Position numbers and translations under genes: made by a program
DNA from: a virus
Strand: one strand, 5' to 3'
DNA: 64,000 nucleotides
IMG/VR virus record: IMGVR_UViG_3300042503_002645
Coordinates: 32,001-96,000 of that record
Shown: positions 2-64,000 of the stretch, piece after piece
How the letters are laid out: each line of letters starts with the position of its first letter
How positions within the stretch are numbered: position 1 is the first letter of the stretch
Notes under the pieces: generated by a model
Seen by the model: only the letters and a program-made list of their open reading frames with translations
Told to the model about the DNA's origin: nothing
The model's database searches: none

Positions 2-1222
2 CTCGTCACCGACGACGACGAGCGCGATCAGGACCGCCTTGCCGTCGCGCACGACCGCGGTTTCCCCACCGACGTCGACGACGTTGACAACGAAGGCGCA
101 CTTCTCGCCCGGCCGGTGGGGCCGTACAAGCGCAACACGATTCTGACGCCGAAAATCTTGAAAGATATCAAAGAGCTCGGAATCAAAGACATTCTCGTGC
201 GCAGCCCGATGGTCGGCGGCCCTGATGACGGCGGCGTCTATGCTAAGGACGTCGGCTACCGCGAAAAGGGCAGCTTGCCGCCAATTGGCGACTATGTCGG
301 CATTGCCGCGGCCCAGGCGCTTTCTGAGCCGGTCACGCAGGCGCAGATCTCTTCGAAGCACTCGGGTGGCGTGGGCGGCGCCAGCGCCATCGGCGGCTTC
401 AAGGCGATCAACGCGCTTGTTCAGGTGCCCAAGAAGTATCCGGACGGCGCGGCGCACGCACAGGTAGATGGGCGTGTCCAGGACATTCGCCCGGCACCCC
501 AGGGCGGCCATTACGTTCAGATCAACGGCCAGGATCACTACGTGCCTGTTGATCGCGAGCTGTCGGTGACGCGCGGCCAGGAAATCGAGGCGGGTGACGT
601 AATTTCCGATGGCATGCCCAATCCGGCCGAGGTCGTCAGGCACAAGGGCATCGGCGAGGGGCGGCGCTACTTTGTGCAGGCCATGCAGACTGTGTTCAAG
701 AATTCAGGCGTGTCTGGCCACCGTCGCAACATCGAGTTGCTGTCCCGCGGACTTGTAAACCACGTGCGCATGACGGACGAGCATGGCGATTACAGCCCAG
801 ACGACATTGTTCCTTATTCGATGCTCGAGCGCGCCTGGGAGCCCCGCACGGGCAGCGTGACGGGAGAGCCCAAAACCCTGATGGGGCACTATCTGGAGCG
901 CCCGATCCTGCACTACTCGATCGGGACAAAGATCGGGAAAAACGTGGTTGGTACGCTGGGTAAGTACGGCATAAACAACATTGAGGCGCACCGCGAGCCG
1001 CCGCCATTCCAGCCCGAGATGATTCGAGGCATGTCCAATATCTCGAACGACCCAGACTGGATGACCCGTATGCTTGGCTCGTACCAGCAAAAGGGGCTGC
1101 TCAGCAGCGTGCATCGCGGCGGCACCAGTGACACGGCAGGTAGCAGCTTTGTGCCCGCTTTGTCGCGCGGCGAGACGTTCGGTGCGTCGGGCGCAACGAG
1201 CGGATGGCGCCCGCAAACGTGA
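2..1222 (+). CDS. rpoC: Phage multisubunit RNA polymerase beta' subunit, C-terminal part (5'-truncated by the window)
   Basis: The frame is open from nt 2 (LVTDDD..., cf. bacterial LVVTEDDC). It contains VGIAAAQALSEPVTQAQISSKHSGG (cf. [24 protein letters not shown]), GQEIEAGDVISDG and HRRNIELLSR (cf. KHIEVIVRQ). Confidence 0.9.
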   Translation, partial: LVTDDDERDQDRLAVAHDRGFPTDVDDVDNEGALLARPVGPYKRNTILTPKILKDIKELGIKDILVRSPMVGGPDDGGVYAKDVGYREKGSLPPIGDYVGIAAAQALSEPVTQAQISSKHSGGVGGASAIGGFKAINALVQVPKKYPDGAAHAQVDGRVQDIRPAPQGGHYVQINGQDHYVPVDRELSVTRGQEIEAGDVISDGMPNPAEVVRHKGIGEGRRYFVQAMQTVFKNSGVSGHRRNIELLSRGLVNHVRMTDEHGDYSPDDIVPYSMLERAWEPRTGSVTGEPKTLMGHYLERPILHYSIGTKIGKNVVGTLGKYGINNIEAHREPPPFQPEMIRGMSNISNDPDWMTRMLGSYQQKGLLSSVHRGGTSDTAGSSFVPALSRGETFGASGATSGWRPQT

Positions 1223-1282
1223 TTCTGTAGGATGTAAGAGCTACGACACGGTAAATTGTTGCTTACGCGTGTCTTATGTCGT

Positions 1283-1298
1283 GCCGCACGGAGGTGGC
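1283..1298 (+). promoter_or_regulatory. CsrA/Rsm-type operator hairpin over the RBS (GCCGC-ACGGAG-GTGGC)
   Basis: 5-bp stem (one G-U) with an ANGGAN hexaloop containing the SD, 4 nt before GTG 1303. Confidence 0.6.
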
Positions 1299-1302
1299 TG
1301 CT

Positions 1303-3681
1303 GTGTACAACCGTAAGAAGACTGCGTCCTCGACGGCGCACTGGCTCAACGTGGTCCGCTCGCACAGTCGAGCCCAGACAAAGGCTGCCGCTGATTTCGG
1401 CGGCAAGGGCGACTCAACGTCCTTTGAGCAGGCTTTCAGCAACCTCGCCCACGCCTACCTCCGCGATTCCGCGCCCAAGCTTCTCGACCACGAGATTGGC
1501 TTCCAGCTTCTCGACCGTGACCGCGAGAACACCAAGGCGGTCGGCGTTTTCGCCTTCAAGGTCGGGTCGAACTGGCTTTACGCGCCAGTGTTCTTCCTGA
1601 ATGGCGATCTCAAAGGTCACGAGCTCCTGTACATCAAGAACCAGGACGTGTTCGTGCCGCTCAAGGAGAACTGGATCAACTATCTGGTCAACCGGAAGCC
1701 CAACATCCTGGGCAGCTCGGTTGAGCGGAATCTCAGCCAGCTCGGGCAGCGGCAGCCCGACTTCACCCAGCTTTCGCGATCCCCGGCCAAGTTCGGCTCG
1801 GCTAAGCCGACGCTCAGGGAGATGATGGCAGCGGTTTACGGTCCGTTCGCCAAGACCGCCACGATGAACACGGCGCTGGCGTTCCAGGAGGTCGGCCGCG
1901 CGCTGGACTTGCCGAAGTTCCTCAAGGAAGCGCGCCTCACCACGATCGACATGCTCGTGAAGACTTTCCAGGACGCTCCGGCCATGGCCAAGGCGTTCGA
2001 CGAGTTTCACGGCCTGGGCGTAATCAAGGAAGCCATCGCGCTGGCCAAGGAGCGGGAGAGCCGCCCGAAGATCGCCAGCGTGCTGTCGGAAGCCCCGGAA
2101 AAGAGCCCGGCTGCCGCCGGGCTCAAGATCATCAGCTACTCGGTGACGATGCAGACGAAGCTGCCGCCAGAGACGACCGAGGAAGACCAGGAGAAGCTTC
2201 TCCGCGACGGCGTGCTCATCCTCGACCAGCGCGACCGTGACAACGTCTCGATTCCTTACAACATTCAAGTCGACAAGAAGCTCTGGAACCCGACCGAGTC
2301 GGGCCTCTACGACATTCTCGTCAAGCCCGGCAACATCGAGCGGGTCTACATCGCCATGTTCCCGATGGGCGCGGCAAAGCGCTCCGATTTCGTGACCGTG
2401 GTTCGCACTGAGGGCAAGCCCGAGTGGATCAACACCCGGGCCGACCAGGTGTTCGTGGTGGCCTGCCCTACGGATGAAGAAAAGAAAGAGTGGTTCAACG
2501 GTCTGCCCGAGGCAAACAGCCTCCCCAGCAGCGGCCGATACATGCTGATCAGCGAACGCGGTGACGCCACCGTGCCGGTCCGCGTGATTCGCGAGTACGG
2601 CGAGAGCGAGTTCGGCGTGACGAGTTACGAAGTCCACATGGAGGACCACTCGAAGTTCCCGCCGAAGGGACACATCGGCCCGTGCTGCTACACAGACCCG
2701 CTGAACTACGACAAGTGGCGAGACGGCGTGCGCATCCATCTCAACGGCAAAAAGGGCTCCAGCCTGCGCAGCTCGATGGGCGACATCTTCGTTCCCGAGG
2801 GTTTCAAGCTCCTCAAGTGCGCCCCCGGCGAAGACGACGCCGAGACGGCCGAGGACCAGGGCGCATGCGGTTGCGGCTCGAGCGATATGCCGCCGCTGAT
2901 GCCTGGCAACCTGGCGGACGCCCAGCTCGAGCTGATGGGCAAGACGGCCAGCCTCGAGGTTTACCACAACGGCACCGAGGTGGTGATCAACAAGGAGGCA
3001 GCCCGCTCGCCCGTGGTGGCGCTGGTCACCCTCGTCGAGCACCATGGCCTGCGCGAGGACGCGGCACGCGAGATCCTCAAGCAGGCTGCGGCCAAGAGGA
3101 AGTTCGGCTGCCACGTGAAATACGCCGCGCCGTACGGCCCGCCGATGATGGTCAATCAAGGCCCAACGGCTCCGACTGACCCGGGTCCGGTGATGGGCGG
3201 CGAGACGATCATGGGCGCCGATGTTCCCACCCAGATGGGAATCGACATCGGCATGCCGGTGGCGGACATGTCAGCCAGCCTCACCGACCGGCAGATCTAC
3301 AACCCGAACACGCGCCTGGACAAGAAGGACATCAACAACGTCATGCAGGCGGCGCAGTCCGGGCAGAAGGAAGTGTTCGACACGGCGATGATCGGCAGCA
3401 TGCTCCGGGCTGTCCGGGACGACTCGATGGTCGACCGGTACATGGGCGAGCTGACCAACGGGCTCGACAAGCTTGGCCGCATTCTGTTCATGTTCTACTG
3501 GCACGGCGACAAGTTCGCGGACCGTTACGGTAAGTCGGACATGCCCGAGCTCGAGGACTCGCTGCGTAACGCCTTCGAAATGCTTGGGGACGTTATCCTG
3601 TTCCTCAAGCAGAAGACCATCGAGCCGTACCCGGAAGAGGCGGGGGCTGACGCCGACCTCTCCAGTGTGGCCAACGCATAA
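1303..3681 (+). CDS. Large hypothetical protein, probable internal head protein
   Basis: ORF 1276-3681; better start is GTG 1303 after GGAGG. Many K-x-A motifs (KTAS, KAAA, KTAT, KIAS, KEAA, KQAA, KYAA). Lies in the head module. Confidence 0.75.
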   Translation: MYNRKKTASSTAHWLNVVRSHSRAQTKAAADFGGKGDSTSFEQAFSNLAHAYLRDSAPKLLDHEIGFQLLDRDRENTKAVGVFAFKVGSNWLYAPVFFLNGDLKGHELLYIKNQDVFVPLKENWINYLVNRKPNILGSSVERNLSQLGQRQPDFTQLSRSPAKFGSAKPTLREMMAAVYGPFAKTATMNTALAFQEVGRALDLPKFLKEARLTTIDMLVKTFQDAPAMAKAFDEFHGLGVIKEAIALAKERESRPKIASVLSEAPEKSPAAAGLKIISYSVTMQTKLPPETTEEDQEKLLRDGVLILDQRDRDNVSIPYNIQVDKKLWNPTESGLYDILVKPGNIERVYIAMFPMGAAKRSDFVTVVRTEGKPEWINTRADQVFVVACPTDEEKKEWFNGLPEANSLPSSGRYMLISERGDATVPVRVIREYGESEFGVTSYEVHMEDHSKFPPKGHIGPCCYTDPLNYDKWRDGVRIHLNGKKGSSLRSSMGDIFVPEGFKLLKCAPGEDDAETAEDQGACGCGSSDMPPLMPGNLADAQLELMGKTASLEVYHNGTEVVINKEAARSPVVALVTLVEHHGLREDAAREILKQAAAKRKFGCHVKYAAPYGPPMMVNQGPTAPTDPGPVMGGETIMGADVPTQMGIDIGMPVADMSASLTDRQIYNPNTRLDKKDINNVMQAAQSGQKEVFDTAMIGSMLRAVRDDSMVDRYMGELTNGLDKLGRILFMFYWHGDKFADRYGKSDMPELEDSLRNAFEMLGDVILFLKQKTIEPYPEEAGADADLSSVANA

Positions 3682-3690
3682 AGGTGAAAC

Positions 3691-5020: not shown

Positions 5021-6949
5021 ATGCAGCCTCTTTCGAAACAGGCCGAGGCCAAGCTGATCGCGGCTATCGAGCGCGCGGCTTCGTACGTGAACGACGGCCT
5101 TGCGCCGAACGACGCCATCATCAAGAGCGCCTCGGAGTCGAGCATTCCGTCAGGACACATCAACCTGATGGTTCACGCCTACAACACCGGGCGTACGACC
5201 AAGCAGCGCGAGCAGGGCAACGACACGCTCGAAAAGGCGGCCGATTTCCCGCTGGCTGACGGCACGACCGTCATGGACGCGCTGTTCCCCAAGGCTGTGA
5301 AGACCTCCGCAGAGATTTCACGCGCTCAAGTGGTTTCCGCTGAATACGCCGTCGACCCAGCTGGCATGCTGGCACGCCGTAAGGCCGCTCAGGCCAAGGA
5401 AGCCGCCGCAAAGATATCTTTGCCCGCGCCGACGTGGGTCCCTCCGCCGCGTGACGAGGAGGCGGCCGCCCGGCGCGCTGCCTCCGAGAAGCGCGCCGCA
5501 GAGTTGGCCCAGGAAGAGCTTCGACGCCAGGCTACGGTCGCCTACGCAAAGGCAGCCGCGGCCATGGAAGAGCTTGGCGATTATTTCCGTCGTCCGGGCA
5601 ACATGAGCTTTCAGGACGCCGTGCGCGAGACCGATCTGCGCTTCGGCGACGAGGGCGTGAGCGTGCTCAACAAGCTCGCGCAGGTCTACCCACACCTCAC
5701 CAAGCAGGCCGCCACAAAGGGGGTCGTTATTGGCGAGTGCCAGCCCTGCAAGCTGGCCGCGGCCGTGCTGACGGCGCTCGAGGCGTACAACGAGGCGCAG
5801 GCCAAGGTGCCGGTGAAGGAGGCTGCGTGTAAGAAAGACACGCCAGTCTTTCTTACAGGTTCCATTCTCTACAACCCCGCCGACGAGCCACTGACGCTGA
5901 AGAGCGCCATGGCCGTAGGTGACCGCTATGGGCTGCTCGACCAGCCGCGTACAGGGCAGGAAGGAGCGCCGCGACTCGGCAACAAAGGGGTCGAGGTCGA
6001 TCCTGCCGCGCATGCGGACTTCGTAGCGCGCCGTCCGGCGCCGGGCCCCAATTTTCGTCTGGTGATGCCAGACCGCAAGCTCGGCAATCCGATCTGGGCA
6101 GCTGACGAAGAGCTGATGGACGAGGCTGCCTTCGACGAGCAGAAGGCGCAGCAGCTGGCGCTTGAGGCAGCGCGGCGTGATGCGCGGCGGTCAACGAGCA
6201 GCAGCCCGCTGGTCAACGCGGTCGACAACATTCTTGGCGGGGCAGACGACGAGGCCGCAGATTTCATTCCCGACGATGAGCCGACCGATGCCGGTGGTGC
6301 CAGCGCCGCTGGCGGTGGCGGAAGTTCGGGTGGTGGCGGGGGTGGTATTCGCGGCAGTGGCGGCGGCGCTCCAGGTGGCCCCAGTGGTCGCGGCAACCGC
6401 GGCCCCCGAGGCGGCGGGGGCGGTCCGCCGCCACCACCTCCGGGCGGTCCTCCGGGTGGTCCTCCGGGAGGCGGCGGCCGACGCCAGGGCGGAAGCGGTT
6501 CCGGCAAAGACACGGAGCCGCAGTCGTCCTTCCCGCTCACGAAAGGCGTGCTCAACGTTGCCAAGCGGCTGGTCCAGGGCGGGCTGGCGATGCAAAAGGA
6601 TCCGCGTGATTTGACCCGCGGCGCTTACAACACGCTGACCGATCCAGAACACGAATCCGAGCTGCGCAACATTCGCGCAAACGGCGTGCTGCATGACCTG
6701 GTGCTTAATGACCCGGTCATCTCCGGACACGACCCGCACGAAGTCGCGTTGGCGTTCAATGATCTTGCGGAGGTTGCGCCCAATTTCGTCGACTCGCCTG
6801 CTACAATGCAGGCTCTGTTGCGAAAGCGCCTCGAGGCTGGCCATCTGGCTGATTTCGACATCAAGCAGCTCATCGACATGGAAAAGACCCGCGCCGATAC
6901 GGAGAAGGCGCGTGTCGATACGATGGCCGCGGAACGCCAGCTTATCTAA
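5021..6949 (+). CDS. Probable internal head protein with a Gly/Pro low-complexity insert (642 aa)
   Basis: Numerous K-x-A motifs (KQAE, KSAS, EKAA, KEAA, KQAA, KLAA) and a GGPPGGPPGG tract. Confidence 0.72.
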   Translation: MQPLSKQAEAKLIAAIERAASYVNDGLAPNDAIIKSASESSIPSGHINLMVHAYNTGRTTKQREQGNDTLEKAADFPLADGTTVMDALFPKAVKTSAEISRAQVVSAEYAVDPAGMLARRKAAQAKEAAAKISLPAPTWVPPPRDEEAAARRAASEKRAAELAQEELRRQATVAYAKAAAAMEELGDYFRRPGNMSFQDAVRETDLRFGDEGVSVLNKLAQVYPHLTKQAATKGVVIGECQPCKLAAAVLTALEAYNEAQAKVPVKEAACKKDTPVFLTGSILYNPADEPLTLKSAMAVGDRYGLLDQPRTGQEGAPRLGNKGVEVDPAAHADFVARRPAPGPNFRLVMPDRKLGNPIWAADEELMDEAAFDEQKAQQLALEAARRDARRSTSSSPLVNAVDNILGGADDEAADFIPDDEPTDAGGASAAGGGGSSGGGGGGIRGSGGGAPGGPSGRGNRGPRGGGGGPPPPPPGGPPGGPPGGGGRRQGGSGSGKDTEPQSSFPLTKGVLNVAKRLVQGGLAMQKDPRDLTRGAYNTLTDPEHESELRNIRANGVLHDLVLNDPVISGHDPHEVALAFNDLAEVAPNFVDSPATMQALLRKRLEAGHLADFDIKQLIDMEKTRADTEKARVDTMAAERQLI

Positions 6950-11161: not shown

Positions 11162-11164
11162 AAC

Positions 11165-14722: not shown

Positions 14723-14872
14723 CCCACTGTTTTACCGTCAGGGGCCTTCCGCTTCGCATTTTGGCGCGTTAGATTCACGCCATTCTGTGAAATCGGAGGT
14801 TAGATATCTTTGACGCTCCGTGGTAGGCGTCGCGCGCTGGGCGCTCCCCAGCCCCCTGTGAAGGAGGCATCC

Positions 14873-15456: not shown

Positions 15457-15497
15457 GCGCTGGCGCCGCCCTTCGGGGCGGTGTCAGCGTCTTTCTT
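15457..15497 (+). terminator. Rho-independent terminator with a cUUCGg tetraloop
   Basis: GCGCTGGCGCCGCCC-TTCG-GGGCGGTGTCAGCGT followed by CTTTCTT. Confidence 0.75.
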
Positions 15498-15529
15498 AGA
15501 TATCAGCGCTCCCCGGATACAATAATGCT

Positions 15530-16786
15530 ATGTCGAGCTTCAAGCGCCTATTCCCGTTCCGCCAGGTTTCCGTGGACCACATGGTTCGCGGCGTGACCCG
15601 CGTCTGGTGGCAGCTCGAGCCCGCTTTCAATGACCCGGGGCCGCACGTCTTTCAGCTCCAGTACGGCAACACCCCGCTGAACGACACGACTGATTGGCGC
15701 AATGTCGGCAGCCCGATCACCGACGGCTATGTGGCCTACGACGACGTCTGGCGCGCCGCAGGGGGCGATCTGGTAACGCATTACCGGCTGACCCTGACAA
15801 CCCCCAAGGACGTCTACATCAGCGCGCCGGTGAACTGCTTTGGCGAGCTGGCCGAGCGCGACTGGAACATTGCCCGGGAGATCATCCGCAAGGAACAGCT
15901 CCGTCACCGGTACGTCTCAGTTTCGGGCTACCTGATCAAGCCGTATCGTTTCGGCCGCCCCTGTACGCGCTGCCGCGATCAGCTGACCGGCGAAGTTCTG
16001 GATTCGAACTGCCCGGTCTGCTCGGGCACCGGCTTCGAAGTGGGTTATCACCCGGCGCTGCCACTCCAGTGCTGGGACGTCGAGCCGTACACCATCGAGG
16101 AAGACCAGGACGTTAACGCCCTGGGCACAACCCGGTCGAAGCACATGACCAAGGCCCGGGTGGTCGGCTTTCCGACGCTCAACACCAACGACATCTGGGT
16201 CAACGGCACAAGCGACGAGCGCTGGATTATTCACTCGATCAAGGTGGCTGCGGCGATCCGGGGCGTGCCGCTGATTTATGAAGTCGAGATGGGCTTGGTG
16301 CCGCTGACCAACGCTATCTACGCCCTCGAGGTCGGCGGCGAGCCCCCGGAACGACCGGGCCCCACGCTGCCAATCGTCGGCTGCGGCTCGGTGACCATCG
16401 ACCACAATTACGGCGGCGTTGATAACCTGGCCTACCTCGACGCTACCGGGTATCCCGTGGTGGGCGCCGCGGTGTACCTGTTTCCCAAAGATATCTTTGA
16501 GGCCGCCACGCCTGCGCTGCCTAACCGCGAGCTTGCCGTTGCCGGAACGTTTACACGCACCAATGGGCGCTGGCAGGACGCCGTGCGTGTGCCGCCTGGC
16601 GAATATGTTGTGCTGTACGAATACCCCGGCGCATGGGGCCCGGACCACGAGCACATTACAGCCGTCGAATCTGATGAGGGCAGTTCACAAGCCTGGCTGC
16701 CGATGATGGCCCCGCCGCCGGTGTCGCGGTGCAAACCCCGTAACACCGCCTCCCAGCGCTCCGACAATGATTTTTGGAACTTCTAG
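15530..16786 (+). CDS. Putative neck/head-closure protein with a CxxC...CPVCxGTG zinc finger
   Basis: CTRC...CPVCSGTG. Lies between adaptor and tail terminator. No SD, and GATACAAT ends 6 nt before the ATG (possibly leaderless). Confidence 0.55.
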   Translation: MSSFKRLFPFRQVSVDHMVRGVTRVWWQLEPAFNDPGPHVFQLQYGNTPLNDTTDWRNVGSPITDGYVAYDDVWRAAGGDLVTHYRLTLTTPKDVYISAPVNCFGELAERDWNIAREIIRKEQLRHRYVSVSGYLIKPYRFGRPCTRCRDQLTGEVLDSNCPVCSGTGFEVGYHPALPLQCWDVEPYTIEEDQDVNALGTTRSKHMTKARVVGFPTLNTNDIWVNGTSDERWIIHSIKVAAAIRGVPLIYEVEMGLVPLTNAIYALEVGGEPPERPGPTLPIVGCGSVTIDHNYGGVDNLAYLDATGYPVVGAAVYLFPKDIFEAATPALPNRELAVAGTFTRTNGRWQDAVRVPPGEYVVLYEYPGAWGPDHEHITAVESDEGSSQAWLPMMAPPPVSRCKPRNTASQRSDNDFWNF

Positions 16787-24123: not shown

Positions 24124-25110
24124 GTGGAACTGGTAGAGAACCCGTACGTTTCTGATTTCACCAAGGCGACGCTCGAGCAGTTTGGCTGGAAGGTCGGCGA
24201 CGCCTTTCCAGCAACGCTCGGCGCGCTGCTGCTGCAGTTCAAGGAAACGGCGGCGCCCTCGTCGCGCACCGACGTGCTGGTGGACAGCGCGGGCCTCAGT
24301 CCGGCGCAGATTGCGGAGGTGCGCGCACTGCTGGCCGAGGCCAAACGGGTGGCGGCCAACCGCGATAAGACGGAAGCGGTCGAAGCGGAAACGCAGAACA
24401 TGTCTCCGGAAGTCGCGGCGCTCTACAAGACGCTTGAGGATGCCGGGCCGGAGATCGTCGACGACCGGGAAGCCCCGCCGCCCCCGCCGCCTGCTGCGCC
24501 CCAGACTCCCGCGCCGCCTGCCCCTGAACCCGCGCCTGCGGATGCCCCGGCAACCTCGGCGCCCATGGTGATCCTGCCGTTCTGCCCGCGCTGCGGCTGG
24601 GACATGCGGCAGAAGTTCGAGGTCGAGGTCACCGACAACGACAAGCAGGAGTTTCTGGCGTCGACCCTCGGTGGCCGCCGGTTCCAGCGCCGGTTTGATA
24701 TCTTTGGCGGCAAGCTGGTGCTGGTCTTCCGGTCGATGCTGGCCGAAGAAAACCGTCTGATCATGCGGCAGCTCGTGCTCGACCAGGCCTCGCAGGACAT
24801 CGTCACCGAGGACGAGTGGTTTCTTCGTCTCATGGAGTACCGCCTGGCTTGCTCGCTGGAACTCATGCTTGACGGAAACGGCAAGCCGCTGCATACCGTT
24901 CCGGAGCTGTCGCAGTTCCCGCACTCGCCGCCGCCGGACAAGCCACTGCAAACAGCCCTGGTGGGCCTGCGCGAGTTCGTGAACAACACGATCTTGCCGC
25001 ACGAGGTGACCCGGCGCATGGTTGGGCAGCAGCTGCGGTATTTCCAGCGGCTCGTTGAAGCCATTGAGGCTATGGCGCTCGAACCAAGTTTTTGGCACGG
25101 GATCGGGTAG
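24124..25110 (+). CDS. Putative tail assembly chaperone (G-like) with a CPRCG motif
   Basis: TAAGGAGG RBS before GTG 24124. Two genes upstream of the tape measure; ends near a T5 run. Confidence 0.6.
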   Translation: MELVENPYVSDFTKATLEQFGWKVGDAFPATLGALLLQFKETAAPSSRTDVLVDSAGLSPAQIAEVRALLAEAKRVAANRDKTEAVEAETQNMSPEVAALYKTLEDAGPEIVDDREAPPPPPPAAPQTPAPPAPEPAPADAPATSAPMVILPFCPRCGWDMRQKFEVEVTDNDKQEFLASTLGGRRFQRRFDIFGGKLVLVFRSMLAEENRLIMRQLVLDQASQDIVTEDEWFLRLMEYRLACSLELMLDGNGKPLHTVPELSQFPHSPPPDKPLQTALVGLREFVNNTILPHEVTRRMVGQQLRYFQRLVEAIEAMALEPSFWHGIG

Positions 25111-29583: not shown

Positions 29584-30387
29584 ATGATCAACCACGCACG
29601 CACCCTGTTGCTGAACGTACCCGGCGCGACGAGCAGCCACGCTGCCGTCGGCGAGGAGTACATTCCGCCGACGTACGCGCCGCTCCAGGAGCCGTCCTAC
29701 ACCCAGGCCGTGCGCCGCACGCTGCTTGGGACGTCGCCGGACCGGTACTTCCTGAACTTCCGTGCGCGGGAGCTGATGCATAACATTCACCAGACGGAGC
29801 TGGCCGAGTACGTCTACGCGCTGGACCCACGGGTGACGTACTGGCCGGAGGTGGACACGCCTTTCCTGGGCGCCGGGTCAAAGATATCTATTGCACGCGT
29901 CGCCGGGGCAGGCAACAGCCGCTTGGTCGTCGTGGGCCAGCCAGTTGCCGACAACGGCCGCGGTCGGGCGCTGCGCGAGTACGATGTCGAGGTAGACGCG
30001 ACCAACCTGACTGTCTCGGCGGTGCTCCTCCGCGGCGAGCCACGCGCGGCTGAAACCGCGCCGCTGGCCACGGTCGACGGTATGTCGGCGCCGGTGCGCG
30101 CACCGCGCAGCCAGCTTTCCGTTAAAGTGGCATTGCCCGAGACTGGCGACCGCTGGCGGTTGACTGCGCTGGCCCGGCCCGAGCCCGCGATCACCACGCT
30201 ACTACCGATCCTGGAAATTCTGGGCGAATCGGTGTTTCTTGGGTTGTTCGGCGTCGGTAACGCTGAGCCGTACAACACCTTCAAAAACCTGTGGCTCGAC
30301 CACCCCGATCCAGCGTACCGGTTGGGCGGTCTGACCATGGCGTTGATTTACCGCACGAACGACATCAGGAACGGTATCAATGTCTAG
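29584..30387 (+). CDS. Hypothetical baseplate-region protein (267 aa)
   Basis: Clean ORF in the tail operon. Confidence 0.65.
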   Translation: MINHARTLLLNVPGATSSHAAVGEEYIPPTYAPLQEPSYTQAVRRTLLGTSPDRYFLNFRARELMHNIHQTELAEYVYALDPRVTYWPEVDTPFLGAGSKISIARVAGAGNSRLVVVGQPVADNGRGRALREYDVEVDATNLTVSAVLLRGEPRAAETAPLATVDGMSAPVRAPRSQLSVKVALPETGDRWRLTALARPEPAITTLLPILEILGESVFLGLFGVGNAEPYNTFKNLWLDHPDPAYRLGGLTMALIYRTNDIRNGINV

Positions 30388-40631: not shown

Positions 40632-42173
40632 ATGAGCTGCGACGACTTCATTATTTCGCCGCGGGGCCGAGCGGGCATTGGCGTGAATCAGCCGCAGAGC
40701 GGGCTGGACTACCCGCTTGTCGCGCCCTCCGCGGACATTAGATATCTAATCGCCGACTTCTACCTGGCGTACGACGACCCGCACTTCTACAGGGCTGCCA
40801 TCCCCGAGCGCGTCCATCCGCTGCGCATCAAGTGGCTGTACGGCGTCGGCTGCGAGGCTGCCAGCGCGCCGGGCTGGGCGCCGACGCCCGTGCACGCCGC
40901 GGACATTATCGTGGTGGACGCCGAGGAGAACGTCGTCTTCGACTCGACGCAGCTCATCGCCGCCCGTGGCGATCCGGAATACTCGAGCTTTCGCCAGCGC
41001 TCCTGGGGCGACGACTACGAGATCTACGAGTGGATCGGCAGCGAGGCCGTTTGTCGCCTCGTCGTCTACAAGACCTGGCCGCCGTCTTCGAGCACTGCCA
41101 TTGACGACGAATGGGCGCGGCGAAACTGGCCCGTGCATTTGGCGCCTGAGAACGCCGTCCTGGACGAGCGCGCCGTGTACAAGCTGCCGCGCCGTCTGCG
41201 GTCGCTGCGCGTCGGGGCCACGCCGACCGGGCTCGCGTTCCGGCAAACCGGCGTGGTGCTCGCCGAGGGGCACAACATGGAGATCACCGCAGCCGCGCCA
41301 GGCCGCGTCGGCGCGCGGCGCAACACGAACATCACGCTCGCCGTCATCCCGGGCACCGGGACCGGCAAGTACGAGGACTGCCCCGAGGACGAACCGACTA
41401 GCCCTATCCTGCAAATCAACGGCGTGTCACCGCGCGAGGGTGGCGATTTTCTCCTGTCCGGAGCTGACTGCATCTACATCAGGCAGCCGACCGAGCTTGT
41501 GGGCGACCGTGCCCGCCCGCTCCGCGTGGGCGGTTCGGCCGCGCTGGCGATCAATACTGACTGCCCGGCCTGCTGCGACTGCCCTGATTACGCCGCCGTT
41601 GCGCTCTACATGAATCGCGTGGCGGCGCTATACGCCGGTGTCGGCCAGCAGGCGCATCAGGCCAAGCTGCTCCACGAGGGCAACATCGACCGCTGGGTCG
41701 AGCAGCGCGATTGCCGCCTGCAGCGACCGCTTCGCGTGCTCATGACGCCGCAGAACTGCCCGACCGTAGACGTCGTGATCATGTACTGCAACCAGTGCCA
41801 GCAGTGCGCCGAGGACGTCTCCCTGGCCGTTTCGTTCAGTGCGTTCCCGGCGCCCGAAACGGTCGAGGTCGTCTGCGGCTACACAACGCTGACCGCGCCA
41901 GGTTACCCCGGCGTGAATTACAAGCTACAAGGTACATACCCGAACTTCACGGCGCAGTTGCCGCCGATCGACGTCGGAAACTCTGCGTACGTGAAGTTCC
42001 GGCTGCGGTTCCTACCGAAAACGGCGCCATATGCCGTCACCGCGACGCTGACCGGAACGGACGCCGGAGACGCAGTCCGGGCGGGGTGTGAACTTACGAA
42101 CCCGAGTGCGTCCGCGACGACCACGGTCACGCTAAAATGCAGCGCCACCGGTGAAACCCTGCAGAACTGTTAA
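40632..42173 (+). CDS. Cys-rich tail protein, paralog family member 2
   Basis: SGLDYPL; ILQINGVSP; CPACCDC. Confidence 0.68.
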   Translation: MSCDDFIISPRGRAGIGVNQPQSGLDYPLVAPSADIRYLIADFYLAYDDPHFYRAAIPERVHPLRIKWLYGVGCEAASAPGWAPTPVHAADIIVVDAEENVVFDSTQLIAARGDPEYSSFRQRSWGDDYEIYEWIGSEAVCRLVVYKTWPPSSSTAIDDEWARRNWPVHLAPENAVLDERAVYKLPRRLRSLRVGATPTGLAFRQTGVVLAEGHNMEITAAAPGRVGARRNTNITLAVIPGTGTGKYEDCPEDEPTSPILQINGVSPREGGDFLLSGADCIYIRQPTELVGDRARPLRVGGSAALAINTDCPACCDCPDYAAVALYMNRVAALYAGVGQQAHQAKLLHEGNIDRWVEQRDCRLQRPLRVLMTPQNCPTVDVVIMYCNQCQQCAEDVSLAVSFSAFPAPETVEVVCGYTTLTAPGYPGVNYKLQGTYPNFTAQLPPIDVGNSAYVKFRLRFLPKTAPYAVTATLTGTDAGDAVRAGCELTNPSASATTTVTLKCSATGETLQNC

Positions 42174-43738: not shown

Positions 43739-44521
43739 ATGTCGGGCGCCCGCATCCTTTACCCCCAGTTTCGCGACCAGCAGGCGGACTCTCGCTATCC
43801 GTTCGCTGACCGCGCCACGCTGGTGTCTCGCGAGCGACAGCTCGAGATCGGCCGCGACACGTTCATTGACGCCGCGCTGTACGCCATCGGCGGCGGGCGG
43901 CAGGCGTACATTTCTGCGGTGGTGGTCACGCCGCAGCTGATCACGATCCGCATCGGTGACGTCGAGACGCGCGAGCGCGCCAGCGCCAGCTTCAATCCGC
44001 TGCAGCTCCCCGAAGACGGCGTGCTGCAGGTGTTTGATATCTATGACCGCCCGGCAGGCATGCTGCTCTCGACCCCGCTCGCCCTGGCCCGGTTCTCGGG
44101 CTGGCCCGCCGAGACGCACAGCTTTGCCCAAGCGGCGACCGAGTTTGTCGCCTCGGTGGTCATTCCGGCCCGCGAGCCGGGTGTGCGGGCCCTGGTCGCG
44201 GACGACGGCGCGCTGCTCACCGGGGACGTCTGGCTCGTCGGCGGCCGGGGCGTCGTGGTCAGGAAGGAAGACGAGCAGACGATTCGCGTGGACGTGATCG
44301 GAGAGCCGCTGTTCAATCGTTTTCTGTGCGACCCAGTGCAGCGCTTCCAGCCGAAGACGCATCTGCGAACCATCACGGTCGACCGCGTGACCTGCGGCCC
44401 GGACGTGTACGGCAACTTTAACATCACGGCAAACGGCCACGCCGCGGCAGACACGGTGCTGCGAATCTCCGCCCAAGACGGAAACGTTAGAATAGACACC
44501 ATCGGCCGAAAGGTGGTATAG
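43739..44521 (+). CDS. Tail protein, paralog family member 4
   Basis: QADSRYPF; LRTI...PDVYGNF. Confidence 0.68.
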   Translation: MSGARILYPQFRDQQADSRYPFADRATLVSRERQLEIGRDTFIDAALYAIGGGRQAYISAVVVTPQLITIRIGDVETRERASASFNPLQLPEDGVLQVFDIYDRPAGMLLSTPLALARFSGWPAETHSFAQAATEFVASVVIPAREPGVRALVADDGALLTGDVWLVGGRGVVVRKEDEQTIRVDVIGEPLFNRFLCDPVQRFQPKTHLRTITVDRVTCGPDVYGNFNITANGHAAADTVLRISAQDGNVRIDTIGRKVV

Positions 44522-50636: not shown

Positions 50637-52529
50637 GTGACGCGGCCTCGTCGGCTGGTTCTTACCCACAAGCGGGCGCCCGGCGACACCGTTGTCATGA
50701 CGGCGCTCGTCCGGGACATCGCGCTGACGTACCCCGGCGAGTTCGAGGTCGCCGTGGACACAAACGCCCCGGCGTTCTGGGAGAACAATCCCTATGTCGT
50801 GCGGCTCAAAGATATCAAAGCCCACGGCGCCGCCGTCCAGCAGGTCCGGCTGACCTACGGGCAGGGCCTGAAAGAGCAGAACACCGAAACCGTTCACTTC
50901 CTTTCCTATTTTCACAGGGACCTCGAGGCCCAGACACGAATCCGGGTGCCGCTGACCCTGCCGTACCCGGATCTCCACCTGAGCCCCGAGGAACGCTCCC
51001 AGAGGCCCGTAGAGGGCCGCTACTGGGTGTTTCTCTCCGGGGGGAAGTCAGACTTCACCGCCAAGGTCTGGGGCGTCCAGGCGTGGCGCCAGACGGCCCA
51101 GGAGCTAATCGGGCTGGGCATCCCGCTGGTTCAGCTCGGCGCGACCATCCACGGCCACTGGCACCCCGAAATTCCGGGCGCCCTGAACCTGGTTGGCCGG
51201 ACCAGCCCGCGGGACTGGGTTCGGCTGATACACCACGCCGACGGGGTCATTTGCGGCGTAACCGGCGCGATGCACCTGGCGGCCGCGCTACAGCGCCCCT
51301 GCGTCGTTCTGGCGGGCGGACGGGAGGCCTGGTGGTGGGAGGCCTATGTGCGGGAGAACGCCGGTCTGGGAGGCCTCCAGACGGCCCAGAAGCTCGAGGT
51401 GCCGCACCGCTACCTGCACACGATCGGCCTGCTGGACTGCTGCAGGCGGCACGGCTGTTGGAAAAACAAGGTGTTGCCCCTCAACGGCGACCCGTCGATC
51501 TGTAAGTATCCGGTGATCCAGCCGGGCCAGGCTGTGCCAAAATGCCTGGACCTGATTACGCCCGCCCATGTTGTGGAGGCCGTCATGAGCTATTACGAGG
51601 ACCGGTCGCTGCCGCCGCTCCGGCCCCTGGAAGATGTCGTGCGCTACCGTGCCGAAGGGCCGCCCGCGGACCCGCCGGTCCTGGCGCCGGACGCCGCGCT
51701 TGGCGAACCAGTTGCGCCAACCAACCGCCTGCCGCCCGGCGCAACGGACAAAGATATCTTTGACCACCCGGTCATCGGCGGGAAATTCACGGTCTGCGTG
51801 TTGTTCTACGGCCCGGCCGAGTTTCATGCGCTGCACATGCGCTGCCTGAACTCGATCATCGCCACCACGCCGCCCAACCGGATCGATCTGCGCGTGGGGT
51901 CCAACGAGCTTTGCGAGGAGACCTGCGCCGTGCTGGACCGGCTGGTGGAGCACGGCGTGATCACCAAACACTACAAGCACGTGGAAAACGCGCTGAAATA
52001 CCCGGTGATGCGCGAAATGTTTCACGACCCCGATGCGCCCATCACAACCAATTACCTGCTTTGGTTCGATGACGACTCCATCGCCGATCGAAATCAGCAG
52101 TGGCTGACGCTGCTTGCCAAGACGATTATTGCCAACCAAGAGGCCGGGTTGTTCGGCGCCGACATGACCATCCGACTGGCCCCGGCGCAGCAGCAACTCT
52201 ACCGTTCGCGGCCCTGGTACCGCGGCCAGCCGTTCCTGATGCGCAACAAACGGCCCGCGCCCAATGGCGACCACACGCTTTTCGTGGCCGGTGGGTTTTT
52301 CGCGCTGAAGACCGAGGCGCTGCGTGCCGCAGACGTTCCAGACGCGACGCTCACGCACAACGGCGGCGACTACACGATTGGCGAACAGCTGCGCCAGGCA
52401 GGCTACGCCGTCGTGGGCTGGAACCGGCAGAAGCAGTACATTCATACATCGAGCGTGCCGCGCCGCGGAGTGGCGCAGCCCCATTTCGGGACGACTGCCT
52501 GGCAGGCCGCAATTCGGAGAAAACCATGA
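50637..52529 (+). CDS. Bifunctional glycosyltransferase: GT9 (heptosyltransferase-like, GT-B) fused to a GT2-like (GT-A) domain
   Basis: GT9 motifs PGDTVVMT and NLVGRTS...LIHHADGVICGVTGAMHLAAALQRPCVVL. GT-A motifs YLLWFDDDS and AGGFFAL. Confidence 0.85.
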   Translation: MTRPRRLVLTHKRAPGDTVVMTALVRDIALTYPGEFEVAVDTNAPAFWENNPYVVRLKDIKAHGAAVQQVRLTYGQGLKEQNTETVHFLSYFHRDLEAQTRIRVPLTLPYPDLHLSPEERSQRPVEGRYWVFLSGGKSDFTAKVWGVQAWRQTAQELIGLGIPLVQLGATIHGHWHPEIPGALNLVGRTSPRDWVRLIHHADGVICGVTGAMHLAAALQRPCVVLAGGREAWWWEAYVRENAGLGGLQTAQKLEVPHRYLHTIGLLDCCRRHGCWKNKVLPLNGDPSICKYPVIQPGQAVPKCLDLITPAHVVEAVMSYYEDRSLPPLRPLEDVVRYRAEGPPADPPVLAPDAALGEPVAPTNRLPPGATDKDIFDHPVIGGKFTVCVLFYGPAEFHALHMRCLNSIIATTPPNRIDLRVGSNELCEETCAVLDRLVEHGVITKHYKHVENALKYPVMREMFHDPDAPITTNYLLWFDDDSIADRNQQWLTLLAKTIIANQEAGLFGADMTIRLAPAQQQLYRSRPWYRGQPFLMRNKRPAPNGDHTLFVAGGFFALKTEALRAADVPDATLTHNGGDYTIGEQLRQAGYAVVGWNRQKQYIHTSSVPRRGVAQPHFGTTAWQAAIRRKP

Positions 52530-56724: not shown

Positions 56725-56989
56725 CCGCCTCGCCGAAGATCCCTACGAACAATCTGATGAGCAGCGCCAGGAGTATCTCGACTGGCAGGAATTCCAGCAC
56801 TATCTTGCGTCCATAGAAGACGCTGCTCTTGAGCCGCCTGCTCCGGCTCCGCCATGTCCCGACCGCCTGGCCATTGATATCTTTGGCCTGGCCGGGTTCC
56901 CTACCTCAGAAACACCATGCAACGCACCAGAGAAGAAAGAGCCAAAGTCACCCGGCAGCGGATGCTCGCAGAGGTCAGGAAAGACCTAA
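56711..56989 (+). CDS. Hypothetical protein (92 aa)
   Basis: Overlaps the csrA end. Confidence 0.45.
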   Translation: MGWNDRLAEDPYEQSDEQRQEYLDWQEFQHYLASIEDAALEPPAPAPPCPDRLAIDIFGLAGFPTSETPCNAPEKKEPKSPGSGCSQRSGKT

Positions 56990-58386: not shown

Positions 58387-61021
58387 GGCGTCGTTACCTG
58401 TATCTTTAGTCCGCCGACACAACCATCTCAGCGCCCTGTCGGCTCTGGGCATTCTGCCGGAAAAGCCCGCGTTTCCAGCGGTCGTCGATTGTCCGTTCTG
58501 CCAGCAACCTCAACTGTACTTGTTCGATGACGTGGTGACAGACGGTATCTGGACGCACTGCGAAGCCTGCCGTGCGCATGGAGATATCATAACCTGTGGC
58601 GCGTTAATCTGGAACAATAGCCGCGCCGAGGCGCTGACGCGGCTGGTAGACCTGGGTGCAGCCAGTCAAGGCGAAGCCGATCGGCTGTCCGGAGACTATT
58701 TCCGGGCAATAAATCGGCTGGAAGCGGCCGAGGCGTTCTGGAATCTGGCACGCGAGCAGATCTGGAACCACCACGACGACGTTATCGCGTGCCGTCAGCG
58801 CGAGCTAGGGTTTGATAACACGATCGACGCCTGCGCCGATGTTGTTGGCGTGGCGCATCCCGATCAAGTCGCCGAGTTCTGCCGCGCCGTCGGCCGGGCC
58901 GTACCACCGCGCATGCGTGAACACGGTCCCAGCCTGGTCCTGCCGTACTACGACTTGCCCGGGCGGCTCACGGGCGTACTGCTCGTCCAGTACAACGACG
59001 ATTTCATGTCGCGGCGCACGTTTATCGCGCTGCAGGGCTGCCCAAAACGCCGGGCGGACGCCGGGTACTTCATGCTCAACACGGTTCTGCTGCCCTGCAA
59101 TCCGGCGCTGCGCGACTCGTACTTCGTCTCCGACGACCCGTTCTGGGTAATCCGCGCGCAGATGGCGCAGCGGAAAGCGGGCCTGACGGCGCTGCCGCTG
59201 GCGGCCAGCTATTCTGGTCCGGAGGCCGTGAGCACCGGGCTGAACTGGCAATCGTTCGCGCCAACGCCCCGGTTCTTCCACAGCGCGCTTCTGACGCCGG
59301 ATGTTATCTCGCAGGCCTGCACGGCCAAAGGTTACGTCTGCGTCCTACCCAACCAAAGCGTTGAGTCGCGGGCCACGCCGGTGCGCAACATGCAGCGCCT
59401 GGCCGCAATACGGCGGCAGGCGCAAACCTGGCAGGCGGCGCTCGAGTCGGCACTGGCGCACACCAACGAGACAGCTGCGCACTCGTTCATGTCCAAACTG
59501 ACCATCGCGCTACCCCGGCTGCAGTACTTTTTCCAGAATCGCAAGCACGATCTCTCGCCCGAGTTCTGCGCGCGCCTGCTGACACAGATCGAGGCGGCAC
59601 CTGGGCTGCCGACCAAGGTCTACAAGAAAGCAACCATCATCGAGCGCGACGGGTGTTGGTGGACGCATACCAACCACCAAGTCTGCAACGCTCGGCCGCG
59701 CATTTACAAGATCGTGCACTCCGACCAGGGCGAGCGGATGTACGTCGGCACGGTCGCCATTAACGGCCAGGAGCTGGATTTTGTCGACAGCGCCACGCGT
59801 ATCGAACGCGTCGGCCTGCTCGCCTTTGCGGCGCAGCACGCTGCATCGCACGGGCAACTGCTCCTGTTCGACCGGCACTGGAACGTGAAGAGCCACCTGG
59901 TTGCAATGCGGCTGCACGAGCCGGAAATCGTGCATATCTCCGGCGACGCAGGCTGGAACGAGCAGACCAGTCAATTCTGCTTCAGGAACTACGCGATCAA
60001 TAACGACGGCAGCGTTACCTCCTGCCCATATCCGCAGATCCAGGCCGCGCTGCCGAACTTTCCCGAGCCGATCGAGATCGCGCCGGTGACGGTGCATCCG
60101 CTGCTGACGCCGTCCTACGAGAACGCCACCATCTGGACCAGTTTCGCTGCGATCGCCGCCGACTTGCTGGCGCCGGTCCTCAACCAGCAGGCGACGGCCA
60201 CGGCTGCGACCGGCAGTACGTTCAACACGGCCTTGGAGGTCGGGTTGAGTCTCGACTGCACCCAGCACCGTTGCTCCAGCTCGCAGCGGCAGAACGCGTC
60301 CAGCAGCGTCATTACGCACCTTAAGAACGTCCGCTGGCCGCTTTTTACCGCCCACGCCTTCGACGACCTGATGCTGTGCCGCACCGTGTTGCGCGTCCCC
60401 AACGGGCCGATCTTTGCCCGCTTGGCCGACCTGACCGCGCACCTGGCGCCAGGCTACGGCTGGCAGGTTATCCGCGGTCCCGGGCTGGACGTTGTGCCCG
60501 ACCTTTCGGCCCTACGGTACATCCTACCGACGTACATCCAGCGCGCGCTGACGCGGCGAATGCAGCTCGCGACGCAGAAAGAACACCTGACAACGGCCGT
60601 GCTCCAGGACCTCTCCGGGTGGCTCAAAGATATCTATGGCGCAACGTTCAACCTGGCGTACGCGACCAACAAGCTGGTCACCCCCGCCCAGGCCCACGAG
60701 GCCTTGATGGCGGCGATCAACATCGGTATCACCGCGGGAAAGCTCGATGTACTCCCCCGGCCACGCCGGAAGGACCAGCAAGGCAACTACCTGCTCCGAC
60801 AAAAAACAAACTGGTGGTTGAATCAGAAGGCCATAGATCGTTACTGTATTTTTGCTGGCGGAGTGATTCCGAATTGGGCGGCAGTTACCGAGTTACTGGC
60901 GCAGCGCGGTTTGCTGCACGATGAACAGGTCGTGAACGGCATGCCGGGCTTGCTGGTCGACAAAGAATGGTGCGACGCTTTCTGGAGCGATTACACAACC
61001 AATGCACGCGAACTTGGATAG
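58385..61021 (+). CDS. Large protein with an N-terminal primase-type zinc-binding domain; degenerate primase/helicase-like
   Basis: CPFC...WTHCEACRAHGD; LVLPYYDLPGRLTG; GWNEQ...F. No clear Walker A or TOPRIM acidic motifs seen. Confidence 0.55.
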   Translation: MASLPVSLVRRHNHLSALSALGILPEKPAFPAVVDCPFCQQPQLYLFDDVVTDGIWTHCEACRAHGDIITCGALIWNNSRAEALTRLVDLGAASQGEADRLSGDYFRAINRLEAAEAFWNLAREQIWNHHDDVIACRQRELGFDNTIDACADVVGVAHPDQVAEFCRAVGRAVPPRMREHGPSLVLPYYDLPGRLTGVLLVQYNDDFMSRRTFIALQGCPKRRADAGYFMLNTVLLPCNPALRDSYFVSDDPFWVIRAQMAQRKAGLTALPLAASYSGPEAVSTGLNWQSFAPTPRFFHSALLTPDVISQACTAKGYVCVLPNQSVESRATPVRNMQRLAAIRRQAQTWQAALESALAHTNETAAHSFMSKLTIALPRLQYFFQNRKHDLSPEFCARLLTQIEAAPGLPTKVYKKATIIERDGCWWTHTNHQVCNARPRIYKIVHSDQGERMYVGTVAINGQELDFVDSATRIERVGLLAFAAQHAASHGQLLLFDRHWNVKSHLVAMRLHEPEIVHISGDAGWNEQTSQFCFRNYAINNDGSVTSCPYPQIQAALPNFPEPIEIAPVTVHPLLTPSYENATIWTSFAAIAADLLAPVLNQQATATAATGSTFNTALEVGLSLDCTQHRCSSSQRQNASSSVITHLKNVRWPLFTAHAFDDLMLCRTVLRVPNGPIFARLADLTAHLAPGYGWQVIRGPGLDVVPDLSALRYILPTYIQRALTRRMQLATQKEHLTTAVLQDLSGWLKDIYGATFNLAYATNKLVTPAQAHEALMAAINIGITAGKLDVLPRPRRKDQQGNYLLRQKTNWWLNQKAIDRYCIFAGGVIPNWAAVTELLAQRGLLHDEQVVNGMPGLLVDKEWCDAFWSDYTTNARELG

Positions 61022-63656: not shown

Positions 63657-63659
63657 CCC

Positions 63660-63824
63660 ATGAGTCGAACCAGAAAGCGACCCTACACCCGGTCCAAACG
63701 TTTTGACACTAGCTGCCGTTGTCATGGCGGCTGCCCGTGGTGCCGCAACAACCGGCTCCACAGCGACATCAGTCGTCGGACTGCTGCCGACACTGCCATC
63801 CGTGAGTACCGCTACGCAAGCTGA
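63660..63824 (+). CDS. Small basic Cys/His protein (54 aa; SCRCHGGCPWC)
   Basis: GAGGTG RBS; MSRTRKRPYTRSKRFDTSCRCHGGCPWCRNNRLH. Confidence 0.6.
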   Translation: MSRTRKRPYTRSKRFDTSCRCHGGCPWCRNNRLHSDISRRTAADTAIREYRYAS

Positions 63825-63854
63825 GGTTCGCGCAGCGCGGTTCGATAAAATGGA

Positions 63855-63872
63855 TGTCGCACGGAGGCGGCA
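63855..63872 (+). promoter_or_regulatory. CsrA/Rsm-type operator hairpin over the RBS (TGTCGC-ACGGAG-GCGGCA)
   Basis: 6-bp stem (one G-U) with an ANGGAN loop, 2 nt before ATG 63875. Confidence 0.62.
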
Positions 63873-63874
63873 CC

Positions 63875-64000
63875 ATGAATTTCGAAATCAGAATCAAAGA
63901 TATCAATGCGTTGTCGCCAACCGAGGTGACCACGATCTACAACCAGCTGTCGCATCCGGCATCTGGTTTGGTCGATTCAATCCGCCCAGAGCTGGAGCGT
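63875..64000 (+). CDS. Hypothetical protein, 3'-truncated by the window
   Basis: GGAGG RBS; MNFEIRIKDINALSP... is open to the window end. Confidence 0.6.
   Translation, partial: MNFEIRIKDINALSPTEVTTIYNQLSHPASGLVDSIRPELER

Follow-up and report, generated by a model that had tools for sequence, protein, structure and literature searches.

Dispersed GATATC palindromes under DNA-level selection in a clade of jumbo phages, probable docking sites for a dimeric protein

ParB/parS, KorB/OB, MatP/matS, SlmA and Noc are all built on scattered palindromes of 12-16 bp that are read by dimers and act at a distance by spreading or bridging. Uptake signal sequences, DNA uptake sequences (USS/DUS) and Chi occur in excess, at fairly regular intervals and, within genes, in preferred reading frames, selection acting at the level of the array. 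The closest published case to the element described here is the 17-bp dyad repeat of the Cluster O mycobacteriophages (Corndog and its relatives), present in 34 copies of which 14 are intergenic; the available text of that report assigns it no known function, notes its absence from the host genome, and gives the authors' view that a transcriptional role is unlikely (PMC4351075). The stoperators of the Cluster A phages come next. In this study we analyzed a window of 64,000 nucleotides, corresponding to bases 32001-96000 of a 119,044-bp IMG/VR virus record (IMGVR_UViG_3300042503_002645; G000 below), in which an AT-rich palindrome with the core GATATC, WWWGATATCWWW, recurs as a lattice of sites within and between genes.

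The window carries 15 copies of WWWGATATCWWW, with 0.00 expected and none found in 100 dinucleotide shuffles, and 26 copies of the bare GATATC against 4.85 expected (shuffle maximum 10). In the whole G000 record the word was found 30 times and its reversed control not once; the palindrome accounts for 31 of the 78 AT-rich patches of 12 nt and stands at the top of the over-represented 8- and 10-mers. All 15 coordinates and spellings listed in the original prediction, which a model had made from the letters of the window, were correct, and the 14-bp extensions that it placed at 5409, 16486 and 51749 are present; the guanine-plus-cytosine (GC) content, put there at about 65%, is 60-65% per 4-kb block of the window and 62.3% for the whole record.

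The sites are selected as DNA, not as peptide. After synonymous-codon shuffling the 22 in-gene copies of G000 fell to 0.52 (maximum 3 in 500 shuffles), and those of two related genomes, G001 and G002, from 32 to 1.36 and from 24 to 1.14, so that the earlier proposal of selection at the DNA level withstood codon-preserving controls. The peptides able to encode the word are used to a high degree: among the encodable tetrapeptides [KNIYLF]-D-I-[KNIYLF], those bearing the motif number 16 of 25 in G000, 19 of 32 in G001 and 22 of 34 in G002, and the same test gave 14/30 in G006, 5/19 in G003, 2/19 in G004, 1/25 in G005 and 0/10 in G007. The required codons are in the minority (AAA 21% of Lys, GAT 24% of Asp, TTT 29% of Phe), and relatives without a site often retain the peptide in GC-rich codons, as in the change from AAAGATATCAAA to AAGGACATCAAG. 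The in-gene copies of G000 (n = 22) fall 16 times in frame 0, as K/F-D-I-x, twice in frame 1 and 4 times in frame 2; frames 1 and 2 require AGA (29 of 2215 Arg codons) or ATA (38 of 1583 Ile codons), both rightly called rare in the original prediction. Its statement that most copies lie in genes and in all three frames also agrees with the window, where 13 of the 15 are in genes and 2 are intergenic (14800 and 56873), except that the frames are used unevenly, 8 copies being in frame 0 (K/F-D-I-F/Y/K/N), 2 in frame 1 and 3 in frame 2. The proteins whose genes carry copies are mutually unrelated.

Intergenic sites make up 8 of 30 copies in G000, 17 of 49 in G001 and 16 of 40 in G002, which is about 3-4 times the share expected from the non-coding DNA (about 7-9%). 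They often abut or overlap the upstream stop codon, and several lie 14-33 nt before a start codon; the in-gene copies are found from 12 to 3339 nt into genes, without pull towards the gene ends. Placement thus follows the least cost, using peptides able to encode the word, stop-codon overlaps and intergenic gaps. The synonymous-codon shuffles, the saturation of the peptides and the GC-rich respelling of lost sites together indicate that a DNA word is under selection and is placed where it is cheapest.

The regularity of spacing suspected in the original prediction was confirmed in G000, G001 and G002, where the sites are more even than random: the coefficient of variation of the gaps is 0.59, 0.60 and 0.67 (P = 0.0012, <5e-5 and 0.0044 against random placement), and gaps below 1 kb number 3, 3 and 1, as against 6.5, 10.3 and 7.2 expected. 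The largest gaps measure 9.4-13.3 kb, and the two largest in the window, 5410-14800 and 16487-24694, span the most conserved structural genes. The earlier remark that no copies occur in the capsid, sheath or tube genes stands for the sheath gene (17773-20592, assigned by weak PHROG sheath matches), the only one of the three that could be checked, since Pfam and PHROGs, with 10 window proteins each, named neither a capsid nor a tube gene. G000 and G001 share about 74% identity where their DNA can be aligned, and 55% at third codon positions. Of the 23 sites mapped between the two, 15 persist and a further 4 have a replacement no more than 500 bp away; where the site is fully aligned the GATATC core is intact in 14 of 20 cases, as against 20% for random aligned hexamers. 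Copy number and even spacing are thus held while single sites turn over.

Counts of the motif in the whole records of relatives, with the reversed control at 0-1 in all of them, were as follows.

G001, 204 kb: 49 copies
G002, 197 kb: 40 copies
G011, 127 kb: 40 copies
G012, 154 kb: 40 copies
G013, 107 kb: 27 copies
G014, 120 kb: 23 copies
G006, 198 kb: 21 copies
G010, 158 kb: 15 copies
G009, about 200 kb: 10 copies
G008, about 205 kb: 9 copies
G003, about 205 kb: 8 copies
G004, about 203 kb: 4 copies
G005, about 205 kb: 2 copies
G015, 112 kb: 1 copy
G007, 192 kb: 0 copies

The lattice thus belongs to a single clade, and sister phages with the same gene order manage without it. Since whole sister phages of the same architecture lack it, the lattice is accessory and does not serve the family as a core signal for packaging or replication. 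No substitute dispersed word was found in G004 and G005, whose top k-mers are coding repeats. In the distant, lattice-free G007 (L094-L103) we observed 13 copies of an asymmetric AT-rich word, GGGTTTCTAATTACC, 4 of them about 20 nt before start codons and 9 in the opposite orientation, directly abutting the ATG.

The symmetry of the sites is respelled from lineage to lineage. The pooled half-site reads CAAAGAT in G000 (ATAGAT between genes), ATAGAT in G001 and CTCATTGAT in G002, which uses an 18-bp palindrome, CTCATTGATATCAATGAG, alike in genes and between genes. At orthologous sites the core is constant and the flanks change by lineage, for instance AAAGATATCTTT, ATAGATATCTAT and TTTGATATCAAA; flank complementarity is 0.5-0.9 beside the core and falls to background farther out, except in G002. 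Outside the 12-mer neither an asymmetric flank signal nor a second element at fixed distance, such as a -35-like box, was found, and the C before and G after the word in in-gene copies probably reflect codon boundaries. Symmetric respelling of this kind would be expected from the co-evolution of a two-fold symmetric reader with its sites, and matches the drift of stoperators with their repressors as described in the available text on Cluster A (PMC6550527). A hairpin or cruciform is not favored, as many copies have non-complementary flanks, AAAGATATCAAA being an example.

The sites of the window, together with one relaxed copy, are listed below by position, with frame, gene and state in the relatives.

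161..172: AAAGATATCAAA, frame 0 (K-D-I-K), RNA polymerase beta'-C gene; kept in G001, CGCGAGCTCAAG instead in G002, and AAAGACATCAAG, the same peptide in GC-rich codons, in two relatives of 90% identity
3998..4009: AAAGATATCTTT, frame 1, 80 nt before the stop of a gene of 132 amino acids (aa)
5410..5421: AAAGATATCTTT (14-bp form CAAAGATATCTTTG, from 5409), frame 2, 642-aa gene; kept in G001, lost in G002
14800..14811: TTAGATATCTTT, intergenic, about 80 nt after a promoter-like motif at 14689-14718; ATAGATATCTAT in G001, with the core kept and the flanks respelled
15496..15507: relaxed copy TTAGATATCAGC (left flank with three W, right flank with one), intergenic, between a hairpin and the ATG at 15530, from which 22 nt separate it
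16487..16498: AAAGATATCTTT (14-bp form, from 16486), frame 0 (K-D-I-F), 418-aa gene; lost in G001 (AAAGATGTTTTT), where the closest site is 681 bp off
24694..24705: TTTGATATCTTT, frame 0 (F-D-I-F); lost in G001 and G002, where sites lie 461 and 414 bp off
29880..29891: AAAGATATCTAT, frame 2, 267-aa gene; unalignable to G001 or G002
35132..35143: AAAGATATCTTT, frame 2, 547-aa gene; lost in G001, with a site 140 bp off
40738..40749: TTAGATATCTAA (14-bp form ATTAGATATCTAAT, from 40737), frame 1, 513-aa gene; kept in G001 as TTAGATATCTAT
44033..44044: TTTGATATCTAT, frame 0 (F-D-I-Y); lost in G001 and G002, each with a site 255 bp off
50808..50819: AAAGATATCAAA, frame 0, 630-aa GT9 glycosyltransferase gene; AAAGATATGAAA in G002
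51750..51761: AAAGATATCTTT (14-bp form, from 51749), frame 0, same 630-aa GT9 gene; AAAGATATCTAT in G001 and AATGATATCTTT in G002, with the core kept and the flanks respelled
56873..56884: ATTGATATCTTT, intergenic
60626..60637: AAAGATATCTAT, frame 0 (K-D-I-Y), 878-aa gene; kept in G001, lost in G002
63896..63907: AAAGATATCAAT, frame 0, 21 nt after the gene start; identical letters in G001 and G002

The site at 3998 is the most deeply conserved: comparison with 19 related loci showed it at the orthologous place in 11 (L009-L012, L051, L015, L049, L019, L020, L023 and L047), down to about 74% protein identity. The combination of a T-tract with TTAGATATCAG, seen at 15496, recurs in G003, G004 and G006, at places that are presumably orthologous; such an element is present near early promoters even in the lattice-poor G003 and G004, and may be the seed from which the lattice grew.

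G000 is an uncultured lake-water jumbo phage with an estimated completeness of 58%, giving a phage of about 205 kb; the stretch is present in contigs of 3 lake-water metagenome DNA runs, and no RNA run carrying it was listed. Its genes cover 91.6% of the record, and the + strand holds 136 of the 140 genes of G000 and 223 of the 228 genes of G001 (codon-model gene caller). An 801-aa structural protein (1276-3678) has no match among 50,697 phage records and matches 53 IMG/VR loci at 43-91% identity, several of them on complete records of about 200 kb. No host was inferred, the scan of genome contigs with the phage epimerase giving a single match of 26% identity in an unrelated metagenome-assembled genome. 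Exact end overlaps in the records labelled with direct terminal repeats (G001, G003, G004 and G006) measure only 73-127 bp, and are more in keeping with overlaps left by the assembler on circular or permuted genomes than with true terminal repeats. The fibre-like genes at 45476-50028 contain long tandem coding repeats, in units of 12 nt (Ser-rich) and 138 nt, and these account for other top k-mers, such as GCTGGAGCTG.

The phage encodes RNA polymerase beta/beta' and, among the structural genes, a 294-aa sigma factor (31980-32861), for which Sigma70_r3 gave 33.4 bits, above the cut-off, and r4 a value near the cut-off. Six-frame search with Sigma70_r2 (PF04542) gave no match in spite of this real sigma gene, so that its region 2 must be very divergent. 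In the distant cultured relative Arash, a Salmonella phage, polymerase and sigma are packed in the virion, according to the available text (PMC10585845). An asymmetric two-box promoter-like motif, GCTAAAT-N15/16-GGCATATTA, occurs 1-7 times per genome in G000-G007, including the lattice-free G005 and G007, and probably serves the sigma-polymerase holoenzyme of the phage; the window has 2 copies (CTAAAW-N15-GGCATATTA, at 14689-14718 and 54065-54094) against 0 expected. A link of the palindrome with terminators was rejected, as the sites within 60 nt of a hairpin-plus-T-tract number only 0/30, 1/49, 0/40 and 1/21.

The sites are probably docking points for a dimeric, sequence-specific protein, a claim that rests on DNA-level selection, on dyad symmetry of up to 18 bp and on lineage respelling. 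The best explanation overall, to which we give an even chance, would be a docking lattice of about 50 sites per chromosome of about 200 kb for a two-fold symmetric protein acting at kilobase range. The reader would recognize the GATATC core in AT-only flanks; it would be a homodimer, probably encoded by the phage and co-evolved with its sites, and once bound it may act over kilobases by spreading, sliding, bridging or blocking, so marking or organizing the entire phage chromosome and setting it apart from surrounding GC-rich DNA that is poor in the motif. Conservation applies to coverage, with few gaps below 1 kb and none above about 9-13 kb, and this argues for action at kilobase range. Because coverage is preserved and the sites are placed without regard to gene boundaries, we favor a role on the scale of the chromosome (coating, condensing, self-marking or protection), which would take about half of the weight within the docking reading, genome-wide transcription control taking about a third. 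The dense arrays of G011, G012, G013 and G014 also speak for the docking reading. The original prediction had proposed an orientation-independent site for a dimeric protein, which fits the selection, the symmetry and the spacing found here; none of the specific functions that it named was shown, and its parS-like and modification-mark readings lose support, as no ParB_N gene was found in the genomes searched and no D12 Dam or N6/N4 methylase gene in those with the lattice.

Several observations weigh against a docking lattice, above all that no binding protein was identified. ParB_N, HU/IHF, RHH_1, MarR and HTH_3 were negative in all genomes tested: in the six-frame searches PF02086, PF02195, PF01381, PF01402, PF00216 and PF01047 gave nothing, and the matches of PF01555, PF01844, PF12728 and PF00589 were confined to sets of genomes that do not track the lattice. 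In particular, ParB_N (PF02195) was found in none of 5 genomes, whereas the control search matched 10 of 14 control genomes; HTH_3 was absent from 5/5 and D12 Dam (PF02086) from 5/5, and the N6/N4 methylase (PF01555) was found only in the lattice-free G007. For an EcoRV-type system no cognate methylase was found in the lattice genomes, the EcoRV-endonuclease model being outside the search. Such negatives are weak in this divergent family, as the PF04542 search missed a real sigma gene. HTH_17 exceeded the cut-off only in an island specific to G000, gene-content profiling gave no clean correlate of the lattice, and the gene calls g1_112 and g1_136 of G001, which do track it, encode acidic proteins with fold unassigned, the protein atlas being uninformative. 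Conservation in relatives, named as a check in the original prediction, holds for G001 and not for the more distant G002, where single sites are kept at 4 of 14 against a control of 18%, no better than chance; furthermore, perfect palindromes make up only 3 of the 21 copies in G006.

Among 20 lattice-correlated proteins, Pfam named sugar enzymes, a cupin, a DEDD exonuclease and DUF6745 and no DNA-binding family; Pfam and PHROGs, with 10 window proteins each, named only sigma, GT9, the sheath (weakly) and the exonuclease. The latter, a DEDD 3'-5' exonuclease (Rv2179c-like / RNase_T; 62508-63026), forms a two-gene cassette with a basic 107-aa protein, P0001 (63333-63656), and the cassette is confined to G000, G001 and G002, the genomes of densest lattice, P0001 alone being present also in G012. 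P0001 has 43 relatives, none with a name, and a predicted all-beta domain (mean predicted local distance difference test, pLDDT, 91.2) without a match in PDB at E <= 0.001. By profile search it was absent from the complete G006 (21 sites), which also counts against the docking reading, and it was not found in the complete G003, G004 and G005, nor in the partial G014 (23 sites); P0001 is only a weak lead as the reader, because the array-bearing G006 and G014 are without it. HNH genes were found only in G002, G003 and G004 and do not track the lattice, and an integrase in 1 of 5 genomes, G000. The island specific to G000 consists of this tyrosine recombinase (L007:8649-9137, corresponding to G000 104649-105137, minus strand) and an HTH_17 excisionase-like open reading frame (L007:9978-10127); it may be an inserted mobile element, lacking in G001, G002, G005 and G006, with a lattice site about 75 nt away.

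The main rival of the docking lattice is a global transcription control of the stoperator kind, possible though on balance unlikely, in which a phage repressor would bind at early promoters and at dozens of sites within transcription units and block the elongating polymerase. It agrees with the co-direction of nearly all genes in G000 and G001, and with the finding of the palindrome within 35 nt upstream of the -35 box at two of the three GCTAAAT promoters of G002 and two of the five of G006, where five promoter-region copies fall within 4 kb; in addition, CTAAA is enriched downstream of intergenic sites (8 of 45, against 2.4 expected), and the stoperators of Cluster A are likewise numerous, dispersed and respelled by lineage with their repressor, in the text available on them (PMC6550527). 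Most sites, however, are far from promoters, and none was found upstream of the GCTAAAT promoters of G000, G001, G003 and G004. Stoperators are described as asymmetric, read by a monomer and mostly one-way (available text of PMC9283540 and PMC6550527), as opposed to the palindromes here; the HTH_3 repressor was not found in 5 genomes, operators do not demand even spacing, and with an integrase only in G000 the family does not look temperate. Promoters of another kind, for instance middle or late, for the multisubunit RNA polymerase and sigma of the phage are far less probable. The phage does encode both components, which the Arash virion carries according to the text available (PMC10585845), and the 1-7 GCTAAAT promoters per genome of about 200 kb imply that more promoters are needed; the excess of intergenic sites and the position of several of them 14-33 nt before start codons would also suit a promoter. 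The count of about 50 sites resembles that of the late promoters of T4. The promoter reading was nevertheless rejected, as the word has no flank asymmetry and no second box at fixed distance and the two-box promoter of the family, a separate asymmetric motif, lies elsewhere, so that the palindrome is not that promoter; an 18-bp perfect dyad, as in G002, is useless to a one-way promoter, the in-gene copies show no pull to gene ends, and sister phages share polymerase and promoter yet have no lattice.

An enzyme that modifies or cuts DNA is an improbable reader, whether a methylase of GATATC, a recombinase, or a nickase or endonuclease that introduces programmed interruptions. GATATC is a classic 6-bp enzyme word, palindromes suit dimeric enzymes, and the phage DNA is evidently exposed to restriction, GCCGGC being absent from the window, where 62 copies are expected, and from G000, G001 and G002, where 94, 127 and 147 are expected. 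Sister genomes purge other 6-bp palindromes (CTCGAG, GAGCTC, ATGCAT, GGATCC, AGATCT, CTGCAG, GGGCCC and others), which suggests unmodified DNA under strong type II restriction, with hosts or host restriction-modification sets differing by lineage. GATATC does not look like a restriction-modification word, as it is enriched while the purged words vanish completely, and such enzymes explain avoidance, not enrichment; a lineage-specific site of 12-18 bp exceeds typical type II words, and the methylase and HNH genes give no candidate that follows the lattice. About as improbable is a "self" code in which the dimeric reader at each site would coat or fence the chromosome every 4 kb or so, and a nuclease of phage or host, for instance the DEDD exonuclease of the P0001 cassette, would destroy motif-free DNA and halt on phage DNA. 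A Chi-like signal that itself stops a nuclease (host RecBCD/AddAB or a phage exonuclease), DNA without the motif being degraded, is slightly less probable still: protection through coverage would predict sites such as these, roughly one per 4 kb, evenly spaced and filling nearly all the cheap positions, and the DEDD exonuclease stands beside P0001 only in the three densest lattices, but the cassette is absent from the array-bearing G006 and G014. The known Chi words are short, asymmetric and host-wide, and the respelling of flanks among phages that share GCCGGC purging argues against one host reader. That the word has no function, and is a by-product of a peptide motif, codon usage or repair bias, is hardly credible; 16 of the 22 in-gene copies of G000 do read K/F-D-I-x in frame 0, but the no-function reading is contradicted by the codon-preserving shuffles (0.5 against 22), the GC-rich spelling in relatives, the non-random spacing, and the copies in other frames, in intergenic DNA and in unrelated proteins. 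An origin by repair bias, in analogy to very-short-patch repair, cannot explain degenerate W flanks or even spacing.

Dispersed dyad repeats of phages have been in print without explanation since at least 2015 (PMC4351075), and the present family is an unusually clean case, since the word stands out at 62% GC, its cost can be read in codons, number and spacing are held, the respelling is symmetric and close relatives are free of the lattice. In combination these features offer natural controls in the search for the reader, and for the benefit to a virus of addresses set kilobases apart along its whole chromosome. A reader that spreads, bridges or blocks would represent a new mode of viral chromosome management or self-recognition; a "self" code, if true, would amount to a palindromic analogue of Chi owned by the phage, or to spreading without ParB, and a global roadblock would extend the stoperator idea to lytic jumbo phages carrying their own polymerase.

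A description of this GATATC lattice was not found in the open-access literature searched, subscription journals and supplements being outside the scope of the search. The lattice differs from ParB/parS in the lack of a ParB_N gene in five genomes and in a site density far above that of parS, and from systems of the ParB/KorB type in having no context of plasmid or prophage maintenance. USS/DUS and Chi are asymmetric, belong to cellular genomes and have a known reader, the competence machinery or RecBCD, and nothing links the lattice to either. With the stoperators of Cluster A the lattice shares dozens of copies, similar numbers per genome and drift by lineage with the reader, the Cluster A repressor word being present also at the early promoter (available text of PMC6550527); the available text describes stoperators as asymmetric sites of 13 bp in temperate phages, mostly with the same orientation and each bound by a monomer (PMC6550527, PMC9283540), whereas the sites here are palindromic, in genomes without conserved lysogeny genes and with no repressor found. 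The Cluster O repeats are nearest, with more than 30 dispersed copies of one dyad word, intergenic and in-gene, without orientation and with invariant arms, as far as the available text describes them (PMC4351075). Their word, TGTTCGG-N3-CCGAACA, is GC-rich with a 3-bp spacer, in contrast to the AT-rich WWWGATATCWWW, and is carried by 70-kb siphoviruses of an actinobacterium, whereas the lattice belongs to a GC-rich, myovirus-like phage of 200 kb with its own polymerase (comparison with the same partial text, PMC4351075). For Cluster O the available text reports neither synonymous recoding nor respelling by lineage nor a test of even spacing (PMC4351075).

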